A DNA stretch of 64,000 nucleotides from a bacterium (GTDB taxonomy: Bacteria; Patescibacteriota; Minisyncoccia; Phycocordibacterales; Phycocordibacteraceae): contig JBBCGK010000001.1 in NCBI GenBank assembly GCA_037200965.1, forward strand, positions 416,001-480,000, written 5' to 3'. Positions 16,599 through 20,209 of the stretch are shown here, in pieces; position 1 is the first letter of the stretch, and the number at the start of each line of letters is the position of its first letter. Under the pieces are notes generated by a model that ran no database searches, was not told the origin of the DNA, and saw nothing but the letters and a program-made list of their open reading frames with translations. A program made the translations under genes and the position numbers.

Positions 16599-16929
16599 AT
16601 TCAGTGCATCGAAAACCTGTAGTCGCGTTCTCTTTTGTTCCGCCTATCCTGCTCCCGCTCAAAGGCTCACGTGTGGCCTTCAAGCGACCGCCGGGTTACG
16701 TTATCCGGCTTCCGTAGCGCGTTTGGGGACGACGCTAATCTCCCACTGTCCTTGCAGACAATATCGACATGATATGCCTTTCGGGCGATATCGGTTCCAA
16801 TTGGATATGTTCCACGAGCAGCTTCCGCTACCCGTGCCTTGTTTCGACTTACTCCCTGTCATTGAGTTTGCCGTAGTCCTGCATACGCAGAATTTCGGGC
16901 ACCCCCAACTCCCTTGAGTTGACGGGCGA

Positions 16930-17820
16930 ATGTGATACTTAGGCAAGTTCACGTTCCCACGCAGCGAGCGGATTTCCCGCACTGCGCGAGCCCCCGGCGT
17001 GCATTTTCGATTTCAACACAGCGATCTTCCTAACCCCTTCTTTCGTGTGATGGGCTTTCGCAATCGCGAGCTCGAGGACTTGGTAAAATAGCTCAAAGTC
17101 CTTTACGCGCTTGCTTTCAAGCGGGTGCCTTTTGAAAAAAGGCACCACGACTTGCTTCAAGAGATCGTAGCTGAAGATCTCGAACCGATAATTATCCCGT
17201 TGATTCTTCCGATATTCGCGTTGGAAGTATATCTTTCCGCATCCCCAGAATTTCTGTACTTTCTCAAGAAGAGGAAGTTCGTCTTCCCGCATCTTGATGT
17301 AGTAACGGCACTGCACCCGGTAACTTACCGAGCCATGCTCTTTCTTAGGTGGAAGCAGATAGACACAGAAACTCCCTTCGCCATCGGTCAAACCGACGAT
17401 GTAATCAGCGGATAGCACGCCTGGTTTTGTCCTTCTCGCGTTCTTCTTGTGGAAGAGCGCAATACTACGACGCAGCTGACTCCCAGTGTCTTTTGATTCC
17501 TGCATACCGACATAGTATCAATGAGTTGACACTACGGGTATTCAAGAACCGTTGCCGTTGTGGACAACTGGGTCTCCCCGGGTTACGCATACTTCTATTC
17601 CATACATCCTCTACGGGCCTTTCTTCGGCACCTTCCCTATCCTCACCGCCCACTGATAGGTCGATGCGGCCCTTTTTGTGTACAGGCTGTGTTTTGCTTC
17701 CAGATCCTTCAGTCCATACCTTACGGCATTGGACCTATCTTTCGGCTACGCTCCCCACGACGAGTGAGGAGGAGTGGATTTGAACCACTTAGAACTATGC
17801 GCTGCCGGGCGCATTTATTT
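16930..17820 (-). mobile_element. 16S rRNA intron (about 890 nt) at roughly E. coli position 1400 (between CTTGTACTCAC and CGCCCGTCA)
   Basis: The 16S exon sequence breaks at about 17821 and resumes at about 16929. The ORF inside is a LAGLIDADG endonuclease. Confidence 0.7.
16939..17505 (-). CDS. LAGLIDADG homing endonuclease (single-motif type), intron-encoded
   Basis: Motif IVGLTDGEGSFCVYL; 188 aa; lies inside a 16S intron. Confidence 0.7.
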   Translation of the reverse strand: MQESKDTGSQLRRSIALFHKKNARRTKPGVLSADYIVGLTDGEGSFCVYLLPPKKEHGSVSYRVQCRYYIKMREDELPLLEKVQKFWGCGKIYFQREYRKNQRDNYRFEIFSYDLLKQVVVPFFKRHPLESKRVKDFELFYQVLELAIAKAHHTKEGVRKIAVLKSKMHAGGSRSAGNPLAAWERELA

Positions 17821-18685
17821 GTGAGTACAAGACTCGAGAACGTATTCACCGTAGTATGGCTGACCTACGATTACTAGTGATTCCGGCTTCATGAGGTCGG
17901 TTGCAGACCTCAATCCGTACTGGGGGCGGTTTTCGGGATTAGCTCCACCTTGCGGTCTTGCATCCTTCTGTACCGCCCATTGTAACACGTGTGCAGCCCA
18001 GGGTATCAAGGGACATGCTGATCTGGCGTCATCCCCACCTTCCTCTCCCGTGAGGGAGCAGTCTCGCCTGACATATATAACAGGCAACGGGGGTTGCGTT
18101 CGTTACCCCACTGAAGGGAACAGTTCAAACCACGAACTGACGACGACCATGCATCACCTGTCCAGCACCCTCGAAGGCTCCGTCCCTTTCGGGTCGGATG
18201 CAGCTGGATTTCTAACCCTGGTAAGGTTCTTCGCTTGCCGACGAATTAAGCCACATGTTCCACCACTTGTGCGAGTCCCCGTCTATTCCTTTGAGTTTTA
18301 AGCTTGCGCTCGTACTACCCAGGCGGCTCGCTTATCGCGTTAGCTTAGCCCCACAGAGGGTCGATACTCCGTAGAGCGAGCGAGCAACGTTTAGGGCCAG
18401 GACTACCGGGGTATCTAATCCCGTTCGATCCCCTGGCTTTCGTGTGTGAGCGTCAGGAACGTACCAGTCTATTGCCTTCGCCTTTGGTGTTCCCCATGAT
18501 ATCAACGGATTTCACCCCTACACCATGAGTTCCATAGACCTCTTACGCCCTCGAGCCGTACCGTTTCCCGTGCGGACCGGAAGTTGAGCTCCCGGATTTT
18601 ACGCGAGACTAATACGGCCGCCTTGACACCCTTTACGCCCAGTGATTCCGGATAATGCTCGGGGCCTCTGTATTACCGCTCCTGC

Positions 18686-19628
18686 TGGCCATCGTGTGTG
18701 GCATGCCGCACGGGCATGCCGCTCATATCGCTATGAGGATCGGACTATATCATCACCCACCAATACTGATGGGGCTCGGCGTGTAGTCTCTGAGGGGTCA
18801 AAGTATATATTCCGATGATCAGAAGGAAGCTTGTACCTGAAACAGGGCAGGATGTAAGGGGCGACGGTTCTTGTAAACGCGTCGCGTCCTTCTTTCCCGA
18901 TATACAGTTTCGGATACCGCTTCCCGCGGCACAGCGACAAATAGGTTTTTGCCGCGATGCCGAATCTCTCTAATAACAGCGCTTGCAGTCGCTTCACCTC
19001 CGATTCCGTGAAAGAATCAGTACTGATGTGGTACGCATAATGGGATTTTGCTCGATAATCGAGCCTCCCATCATCCATGAACCACACCGCGAGCGTGAGC
19101 GGCGACCGGAACAATTCGGTGATATTTCCAGGAACGACCTTCTCGCGTCCCGCGTAGAAGATTTTGCGCATGTCTTCGAGGTTCTCGAAGAAACGCGTTC
19201 CGAAATACCACTGTTTCGTATCCGGTCTTTGCTTCGGAGGAGTTTTGACGAGATGCGCGAAGTGACTATAAAGCCACACTACATACTCCTTTCGTTCCTC
19301 CGATTGCTTTACCTGCAATCGGGTGCCTCGATAGCCGTTAAACTCGAGATTTCCATCTCCGAGCATGAGGCCTACGAGCACATCCCGTTGTTGCTTCGAG
19401 AGCGCACAGATCATCTTCACAATTATACTCGACTTCCCTGCTGATTGTCTCTTGGGATCTGATTTTGATTTCAAAGAAATCTAAACCAGACGCAGTCCAC
19501 AAGAGAGTTCCAGCATATAGCCAAGTTTTCGATCTCGATTTCTCGAGAAAGCTGCACGCGGTAACGAACGGTTCGTGAGAACCGTTCGATTTGCTCCAAT
19601 GCGCAGAGCCACCTGCGCACGTGTACAG
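18686..19628 (-). mobile_element. 16S rRNA intron (about 940 nt) just 5' of the 515 region
   Basis: The exon stops after ...AACTCTGTAC near 19629 and resumes at GGCCAGCAGGAGCGG near 18685. Confidence 0.7.
18731..19474 (-). CDS. LAGLIDADG homing endonuclease (two-motif monomeric type), intron-encoded
   Basis: Motifs LVGLMLGDGNL and LAVWFMDDGRL; 247 aa. Confidence 0.7.
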   Translation of the reverse strand: MKSKSDPKRQSAGKSSIIVKMICALSKQQRDVLVGLMLGDGNLEFNGYRGTRLQVKQSEERKEYVVWLYSHFAHLVKTPPKQRPDTKQWYFGTRFFENLEDMRKIFYAGREKVVPGNITELFRSPLTLAVWFMDDGRLDYRAKSHYAYHISTDSFTESEVKRLQALLLERFGIAAKTYLSLCRGKRYPKLYIGKEGRDAFTRTVAPYILPCFRYKLPSDHRNIYFDPSETTRRAPSVLVGDDIVRSS

Positions 19629-20209
19629 AGTTAGGAGCCCCTTATTCCCCGGGTACCGTCAATTACTTCGTCCCCGGGAAAAGCTGTTTACGTACCTAAG
19701 CACTTCGTCCAGCACGCGGCGTCGCTCCGTCAGGCTTGCGCCCATTGCGGAATATTCTCGTCTGCGGCCTCCCGTAGGAGTATGGGCCGTATCTCAGTCC
19801 CATCGGTGGGGGTCAGCCTCTCAGCTCCCCTAAACGTCGTAGCCTTGGTGAGCCATTACCTCACCAACTAGCTGATATTACGCAGGTGACTCCCGGAGCA
19901 ATAAATCTTTACTCTCGCGAGACCATCGGGAATTACCCAACCTTTCGGCTGGCTATGCCCGACTCCGGGGGATCTCCCTGCGCGTTACTACCTCGTTCGC
20001 CACTGCCCTTGCGGGCCGTTCGACTTGCATGACTTATCCACGCCGCCAGCATTCATCCTGAGCTAGGATCAAACTCTCATTAAGAATAGGCGGAACAAAA
20101 CAAAACATAACTTACAGGTTTTCTTGCACCCCCAAGACCGTGCCGGTCCTGGGGACTTTATTCGTATGTCAGAGAGCAAATAAAACCGGCCCCCTGTGGG
20201 GCAGGTAAA

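Follow-up and report, generated by a model that had tools for sequence, protein, structure and literature searches.

A 16S rRNA gene of a Kaiserbacteria-like Patescibacteria bacterium probably interrupted by a group I and a group II intron, each with a LAGLIDADG gene

What are two insertions of about 900 nucleotides (nt) doing in a bacterial 16S rRNA gene, and could such a gene still give rise to a continuous rRNA? The question is raised by a gene in a 64,000-nt stretch of DNA (positions 416,001 to 480,000 of contig JBBCGK010000001.1, assembly GCA_037200965.1; the whole stretch is referred to here as the window). A preliminary description of this locus had recognized two insertions of about 940 and 890 nt in an otherwise collinear 16S rRNA gene; comparison with the Rfam small-subunit (SSU) rRNA model and with intron-less relatives bears this out, fixes the exact sites, gives sizes of 935 and 892 nt and adds the strand, which had not been stated. 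The gene very probably belongs to a Kaiserbacteria-like bacterium of the Candidate Phyla Radiation (CPR, or Patescibacteria) and carries a group I intron between Escherichia coli positions 516 and 517 and a group II intron between positions 1399 and 1400, each with a LAGLIDADG gene. From RNA structure, covariation and published work, we predict splicing, exon ligation and homing.

The 16S rRNA gene lies on the minus strand, from 20084 to about 16800, and all features described below are on that strand. Exon 1 (19625..20084, 460 nt), which corresponds to E. coli positions 1 (approximately) to 516 and ends in CUAACUCUGU, is recovered by one match to the Rfam model SSU_rRNA_bacteria (20084..19562, 386 bits), and exon 2 (17821..18689, 869 nt; E. 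coli 517 to 1399) is recovered by another (18828..17773, 775 bits). Exon 3 (about 16800 to 16928, about 129 nt; E. coli 1400 to the 3' end) reads CGCCCGUCA...AAGUCGAAACAAGG...GGAACAUAUCCAAUU and was aligned by eye to relatives; its 3' end is approximate. Intron 1 occupies 18690..19624 and intron 2 occupies 16929..17820. The exons total about 1,458 nt; the sum of about 1,490 nt given in the preliminary description was close but runs some 25 nt past the likely 3' end. With E values between 1e-16 and 1e-245, chance matching is excluded as an explanation of these observations.

Junctions were placed by reading the minus strand directly and by comparison with relatives whose sites are uninterrupted. 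The 516/517 site is unbroken in many Patescibacteria loci, where CTAACTCTGT continues into GCCAGCAG, and the 1399/1400 site is unbroken in loci L087, L136, L164 and L166/L167, where CTTGTACTCAC continues into CGCCCGTCA. Because these intron-less relatives read straight through, both junctions (U516/G517 and C1399/C1400) are unambiguous, and the predicted ligated products would join CUAACUCUGU to GCCAGCAGG and UUGUACUCAC to CGCCCGUCA. No second 16S rRNA copy was found within the 64-kb window. The Rfam SSU alignment overruns the end of exon 2 (17773..17835), mistaking the beginning of intron 2 for the 3' end of the 16S rRNA and reporting model positions 1 to 1533, and the bacterial SSU model gave no match to the real exon 3. 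Automatic rRNA annotation of such split genes will be wrong, and callers also fragment the gene, here into two partial Rfam matches.

Genes for rRNA are often misassembled in metagenomes, and one independent contig (L002) ends within exon 2, so that an assembly chimera at the junctions, a concern already raised in the preliminary description, or a decayed 16S pseudogene had to be weighed. Positions 18072..12939 are identical in a second assembly (GCA_015655515.1), and positions 17850..16814, including both junctions of intron 2, are identical in a third (a Logan contig); both insertion sites are also occupied, with exact junctions, in dozens of further species. The comparison of assemblies thus makes an artefact appear very unlikely, and the SSU model scores of the exons speak against decay, leaving chimera and pseudogene together with a minute share of the probability.

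Intron 1 is, judged from its sequence, a group I intron. The Rfam model Intron_gpI (RF00028) matches only its 3' part (18721..18893, 26.5 bits, E = 1.7e-4; the gathering score of 50 is not reached), in an alignment that takes in UCAGAGACUACACG, the classical J6/7-P7 element, and GAUAUAGUCC, the P7' element. A partial group I match, of 31 to 36 bits, is likewise seen in homologous introns at this site. The match is probably partial because the two halves of the core are kept apart by an open reading frame (ORF) in the P6 loop. Homologs of intron 1 were gathered by protein-guided look-ups and the core was then located in them. In intron 1 itself, P3-P4-P6 and P7-P8-P9 were all located in canonical order, and P5 was located too. 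The 5' strand of P3 (CUUGGC), J3/4 (UAUA) and the 5' strand of P4 (UGCUGG) lie at 19510..19525, followed by the 3' strand of P4 (UCAGCA) and the 5' strand of P6 (GGG-AA-GUC) at 19430..19446. The catalytic core, which is kept in all homologs, lies at 18742..18801 and comprises the 3' strand of P6 (GACCCC), J6/7 with the 5' strand of P7 (UCAGAGACUA), the 3' strand of P3 (GCCGAG), the P8 hairpin and the 3' strand of P7 (GAUAUAGUCC). The P9 hairpin (CUCAUA-GCGA-UAUGAG) and a further 3' hairpin occupy 18700..18737.

These pairings (P3, CUUGGC/GCCGAG; P4, UGCUGG/UCAGCA; P6, GGG-AA-GUC/GAC-CCC) covary among the homologs. P3 and P4 are paired at six of six positions in 13 of 13 homologs, with compensatory variants such as CUCAGC/GCUGAG, CUUGGC/GCCAAG and UGCGGG/UCCGCA, and P6 takes three forms (GUC/GAC, GUU/AAC and GCU/AGC). 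The P3, P4 and P6 pairs were counted by script from sequence anchors; a MAFFT alignment of the core misplaced P8 in some rows.

The ends of intron 1 are those of a group I intron, with a 5' exon ending in U (19625) and a terminal omega-G (18690). The internal guide sequence, GCAG at 19552..19555, forms P1 with the exon sequence CUGU (19628..19625), placing a U516-G pair at the splice site, and covariation supports this pairing. The guide lies 30 to 34 nt before P3 in 11 of 12 homologs, and among the 12 homologs it changes together with the exon (GCAG with CUGU and GCGA with UCGU). An alternative guide, GCAGG at 19616..19612, could form 5 bp and was set aside; it is missing in the close homolog L164, which has a covarying hairpin at that spot, and it is the position of GUGCAGC that is conserved relative to P3. 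In the proposed pathway, free guanosine bound in P7 would cleave after U516, and the terminal G (18690) would then direct exon ligation.

The P6 loop of intron 1 contains the gene for a two-motif LAGLIDADG endonuclease (HE1; 18731..19414, 227 amino acids from the ATG). The preliminary description had assigned a LAGLIDADG ORF to each insertion, a two-motif ORF in one case and a single-motif ORF in the other, and profile searches agree on both counts. HE1 matches Pfam LAGLIDADG_2 (E = 1.5e-32, 113 bits; cut-off, 25), retains the acidic residues of its motifs LVGLMLGDGNL and VWFMDDGRL (LGDG and MDDG) and aligns with I-SceI (E = 5e-16, residues 5 to 199). Because the I-SceI alignment covers both motifs, HE1 is taken to be a monomeric two-motif enzyme. 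Its conserved part stops at ...CFRYKLPP, and the C-terminal tails of its homologs differ in frame over the same conserved RNA, so that the last 30 or so codons, which cover P6' to P9, are read-through of the ribozyme core. HE1 would cut intron-less 16S rRNA genes at the 516 site, and repair would copy the intron in. In a metagenome scan with HE1, site 516 accounted for about 16 of 80 loci; most of the relatives found have no recognizable 516-site flanks and probably sit at other rRNA sites.

A promoter-like site was observed inside intron 1 at 19422..19451 (GAGACA, an 18-nt spacing and TATAAT; 10 of 12 matches), ending 8 nt before the HE1 ATG, and a TATAAT-like box stands just ahead of the endonuclease ORF in all of the intron 1 homologs. 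The message for HE1 may be a separate, nearly leaderless transcript and not the rRNA precursor.

Is intron 2 an element of the same kind? LAGLIDADG genes are usually found in group I introns, and intron 1 is one, so that two group I introns had to be considered, and the preliminary description had suggested Rfam group I models as the check. That check gives a match in insertion 1 but none in insertion 2, even at E values up to 10; a group I search alone would therefore miss intron 2, which is a group II element. The last base of its 5' exon is C and that of the intron is U, where U and G would be expected of a group I intron, and the insertion shows a domain V hairpin, domain VI, a match to the J2/3-domain III region and pairing between exon-binding site 1 (EBS1) and intron-binding site 1 (IBS1). 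With these features the reading of both insertions as group I introns is already refuted for insertion 2, and it keeps hardly any probability overall.

Intron 2 has instead the sequence characteristics of a compact group II intron resembling class IIC. At gathering thresholds, Rfam searches matched no intron model within the 16S rRNA gene, and the types of the insertions emerged from relaxed E values together with homologs. The window's own group II matches are weak: the model of domains I to IV (RF01998) gives E values of 0.3 to 0.5 and 19.8 bits versus a gathering score of 35, and the model of domains V and VI (RF00029) gave no match in the window at E values up to 10. The matches to domains I to IV were first taken as noise, a view overturned by above-threshold homologs and the literature; homologs reach 35 to 48 bits with RF01998, and the best homolog with RF00029 (L013) reaches 36.4 bits versus a threshold of 40. 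When an alignment of the intron 2 endonuclease (HE2) was scanned against one genome per GTDB species, at least 209 related stretches were found, and in all 45 loci that could be checked the element sits at the same 16S rRNA position.

Intron 2 begins with a 5'-terminal linker, AAAUAA (17820..17815), followed by AUGCG (17814..17810), a degenerate equivalent of the GUGYG motif that was identified as such by its position relative to the first, covarying helix of domain I. In an alignment of 5' ends the initial AA never varies and GCG is conserved; the remainder of the linker differs by lineage. A 5' splice site at AUGCG was considered and rejected: the decoding center would then retain six variable bases, and both the intron-less relatives and EBS1 covariation place the site directly after C1399. 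Domain I (17577..17809), domain II (17576..17478), J2/3 and domain III (17471..17429) were delimited with an RNAalifold consensus of 31 introns, in which domains I to III contain 82 pairs in 15 helices with 94% of cells paired, compared to 35 to 45% when the partners were slid as a control. Sixty-nine of the 82 pairs change on both sides, and none of 500 shuffles reached the observed value. A hairpin resembling a tRNA T arm, GUGGUUCAAAUCCAC (17788..17774), is a conserved stem-loop of domain I of this intron.

The splice sites of intron 2 are tied to the exons by a loop in domain I, GGUGAG (17642..17647), which contains EBS1 and an adjacent delta-like G and is complementary to the ligated sequence CUCAC/C, which spans five bases at the end of exon 2 and one at the start of exon 3. 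The complementarity is 6 of 6 in 45 of 45 introns and is maintained through two compensatory switches, one pairing CACAC/C with GGUGUG and the other pairing CUCAC/U with AGUGAG or AGUGGG. Because the exon-binding loop follows both exons, the splice sites are fixed and exact splicing can be argued to be under selection.

This covariation, with that of the guide in intron 1, bears on whether the insertions are spliced at all. They might be kept as expansion segments in the mature rRNA, or they might be removed by an RNase III-type cleavage without ligation, leaving a fragmented 16S rRNA; examples of unligated intervening sequences exist in bacterial 23S rRNA, and some CPR insertions fit no intron model (PMC11270868). 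Both sites, however, lie in universally conserved functional centers, the 530 loop and the decoding region around position 1400, and the guide sequences of both ribozymes follow the exon by compensatory change, which would be expected only if exact splicing were under selection. Brown et al., as cited in PMC11270868, moreover saw such insertions removed from transcripts. Retention or unligated removal is accordingly an improbable alternative to splicing, and two spliced introns remain the preferred reading.

Domain V of intron 2 was recognized as a 35-nt hairpin at 16956..16990 that contains a CGC triad, a G-U wobble and a two-nucleotide UC bulge. It is 100% paired in 31 sequences, six of its pairs show compensatory changes and no shuffle in 500 reached its score. 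Its base, C-U-C-G with U-G-G-G, is invariant, and the G-U wobble lies six pairs from the 2-nt bulge, as it does in known domain V hairpins. In domain VI (16932..16952), the A at 16936 is bulged and stands 8 nt upstream of the 3' splice site. Domain V would supply the catalytic center; the first splicing step may be hydrolytic, given the noncanonical 5' end, yet the bulged A of domain VI is retained. Domain VI (16929..16952) differs between lineages of the intron 2 family. That of the window bulges an A at position -8 on the 3' side; in a larger sister lineage, whose introns start with AAUAAAAGCG, it is an AA of the 5' strand that bulges, and no branch-point A is obvious. Splicing chemistry may differ between the two.

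HE2 is encoded in domain IV of intron 2 (16939..17505) as a single-motif LAGLIDADG endonuclease. It matches Pfam LAGLIDADG_1 (E = 2.1e-16, 61 bits; cut-off, 23) and keeps the acidic residue (TDGEG) of its motif, IVGLTDGEGSF. The ORF starts with the ATG at 17505, the conserved domain begins near a GTG at 17418 and homologs stop at ...MHA (16996); the last 18 codons are read-through of domains V and VI. Because HE2 aligns with each half of two-domain enzymes of the I-OnuI type and with a 170-amino-acid single-domain protein, it is most likely a homodimer, and as such it would act in DNA-level homing. Homology searches point to hundreds of relatives of both endonucleases in CPR genomes (285 for HE1 and 322 for HE2). 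Both proteins are present at 100% identity in a public protein collection, where they derive from the metagenome-assembled genome GCA_037975565.1 and HE2 bears the NCBI name LAGLIDADG family homing endonuclease.

The distribution of intron 2 is patchy. The close relatives L164 and L166/L167 have intron 1 and an empty 1399/1400 site, and this scattered presence among close relatives shows, by genome comparison, that intron 2 behaves as a mobile element. Empty 516 sites are found in L008 and L014.

Relatives also carry other insertions in this part of the gene. In L165 (3049-3125) and L168 (3065-3140), a different group II intron with a LAGLIDADG_1 gene is located two bases upstream, after C1397, where CTTGTACTC meets GGGTCGCCATGCG...; RF01998 scores 48.4 bits in L165. 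Because this intron differs from intron 2, at least two group II lineages target the decoding-center stretch in Patescibacteria. A further 16S rRNA insertion follows AAGUCGU (about E. coli positions 1498 to 1506) in L012, L016, L020, L065, L071, L080 and L164, that of L164 carrying a LAGLIDADG_2 gene; the window has no such insertion.

Several observations weigh against two functional introns with active endonucleases. Within the window both introns score below the gathering thresholds of their Rfam models (26.5 versus 50 bits for RF00028 and 19.8 versus 35 bits for RF01998), and RF00029 finds nothing. The P1 helix of intron 1 has just 4 bp, closing a loop of about 69 nt, and GCAGG at 19616..19612 offers a second possible guide. 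Intron 2 does not begin with the canonical G and ends in UU rather than AY in the window, most of its relatives ending in AU. Both endonuclease ORFs run on into ribozyme sequence, and the activity of their products is a prediction. We infer splicing, ligation and the choice between branching and hydrolysis alike.

The host appears to be a Kaiserbacteria-like member of the CPR, with an exon 2 that is 90 to 92% identical to those of Kaiserbacteria-like metagenome-assembled genomes, in agreement with the CPR affiliation proposed earlier. Its 530 loop, at the start of exon 2 (18689..18670), is the variant GCCAGCAGGAGCGGTAATAC / GCCAGCAGGAGCGGUAAUAC; the corresponding stretch in most Patescibacteria is GCAGCAGCGG. 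The GA in place of CC noted in the preliminary description is therefore real, and it is compensated: GGA at positions 524 to 526 pairs with UCC, instead of GGC, at positions 505 to 507, so that the pseudoknot is maintained. Across the fetched loci these triplets (505-507/524-526) covary as UCC/GGA, UGC/GCA (the commonest), GGC/GCC and GCC/GGC. The GGA is a lineage variant in which long-range pairing is preserved, and not damage.

The same features affect amplicon surveys. The site of primer 515F is cut by intron 1 after GU and is also mismatched by the GA-for-CC change, and the site of 1391R is cut by intron 2, as had been anticipated; the poor fit of 1492R, which had been attributed to the same cause, stems from exon divergence and involves no intron. 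Standard 16S rRNA amplicon surveys miss such genomes, in which the 515F and 1391R sites are each split by an intron of about 900 nt, an already recognized problem for CPR bacteria.

The 3' tail of the 16S rRNA (16799..16814; also loci L004, L005, L044 and L166) reads GGAACAUAUCCAAUU, compared to GGAUCACCUCCUUUCU in other Patescibacteria. Because of this replacement, the anti-Shine-Dalgarno sequence CCUCC is absent from the window's lineage. In a crude set of 41 ORF starts, GGAG/GAGG is hardly enriched (4 to 5 observed versus about 2.7 expected), and many of the starts are preceded by a TATAAT- or TAGAAT-like box 6 to 10 nt upstream. Such boxes near ORF starts hint at leaderless mRNAs.

The rRNA genes of the window do not form one operon. 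The 16S rRNA gene (16800..20084) is followed by tRNA-Ile(GAU) (16237..16310), and about 13 kb upstream on that strand, beyond other intervening sequence, is a 23S-5S pair (33882..38226 and 32753..32860). The 23S rRNA gene is 4,345 nt long, versus 2,925 nt for the model. Because it holds an ORF-less group I intron (34304..34520; 67.6 bits with Rfam, which exceeds the gathering score) and, separately, a LAGLIDADG_1 ORF (35178..35717; Pfam, E = 3.8e-21), it is interrupted at least twice.

How do the two introns compare with known systems? Eukaryotic nuclear S516 group I introns, such as those of Naegleria, presumably share the insertion point of intron 1, after U516; the endonucleases of those introns, where present, are of the His-Cys box type. 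The alignment of HE1 with I-SceI spans almost the entire protein and takes in both motifs, at low identity; the DNA targets differ. Among LAGLIDADG enzymes of the I-OnuI/I-CreI type, HE2 matches each half of the two-domain members, likewise at low identity and with different targets, and is the size of I-ShaI, a related CPR enzyme shown to be a homodimer that cuts its own insertion site.

The closest counterparts are in the CPR itself. Tsurumaki et al. (2024) surveyed 380 CPR 16S rRNA genes, 48% of which have insertions (PMC11270868). Group II-like insertions were confined to position 1400, where 39 of 53 carried LAGLIDADG genes, all 39 of them LAGLIDADG_1, and 43 of 54 LAGLIDADG_2 ORFs were in group I introns. 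The window shares with that survey the host clade, LAGLIDADG_2 in a 16S group I intron together with LAGLIDADG_1 at position 1400 (their 16IS9), the endonuclease size ranges and the scattered presence among relatives. The window is a typical example of both CPR intron classes; it holds nothing new in kind, and its arrangement has already been described. The survey classified insertions with Rfam models and does not give the 5' linker, the exon-binding loop or the details of domains V and VI; it also calls LAGLIDADG_2 proteins of about 210 amino acids single-domain, whereas HE1 has two motifs and aligns with the I-SceI monomer (PMC11270868).

A base next to EBS1 in intron 2 covaries with the first base of the 3' exon, and such pairing is the delta-delta' arrangement typical of class IIA. 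Extra bases between IBS1 and GUGYG, as in intron 2, are also known from rRNA introns of fungal mitochondria that have 5'-terminal insertions (Li et al. 2011) and from C.te.I1 of Clostridium tetani; most introns with this trait sit in rRNA genes, and rRNA group II introns of this kind, mostly with LAGLIDADG genes, splice 1 to 33 nt upstream of GUGYG (PMC4424553). The fungal and C.te.I1 introns belong to class IIB1 and many have no branch-point adenosine, whereas the window's lineage keeps the bulged A of domain VI and, unlike them, has lost the first G of GUGYG (AUGCG).

Salman and colleagues are said to have described, in 2012, a Thiomargarita 16S rRNA intron belonging to the rns-1396 family. 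Members of this family are bacterial 16S rRNA introns with a IIC backbone, no EBS2, a single-motif LAGLIDADG gene in domain IV and, in all cases, a 5'-terminal linker (Liu et al. 2026, PMC13190283); the 2026 survey reported them in Thiotrichaceae only. Compared by description alone, intron 2 shares with them the 1396-1400 region, the IIC-type backbone, the single-motif LAGLIDADG gene in domain IV, the absence of EBS2 and the 5' linker, and differs in host (Patescibacteria versus Thiotrichaceae), the insertion site being placed at 1399/1400 here and given as 1396 for the family. What is modestly new here is the exact junctions, the covariation-backed anatomy and the abundance of the CPR group II/LAGLIDADG family, which published surveys had passed through Rfam models or omitted. 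It is conceivable, at a confidence we would place slightly short of even, that the 1399/1400 introns form a large and distinct group II lineage of Patescibacteria that lacks a 5' G, splices 5 to 9 nt upstream of a degenerate GUGYG and combines an IIA-like delta-delta' pairing with an IIC-like scaffold. If so, they would be the largest natural pool of LAGLIDADG-bearing group II introns, missed by the 2026 survey, and could have given rise to the Thiomargarita intron or be sister to it.

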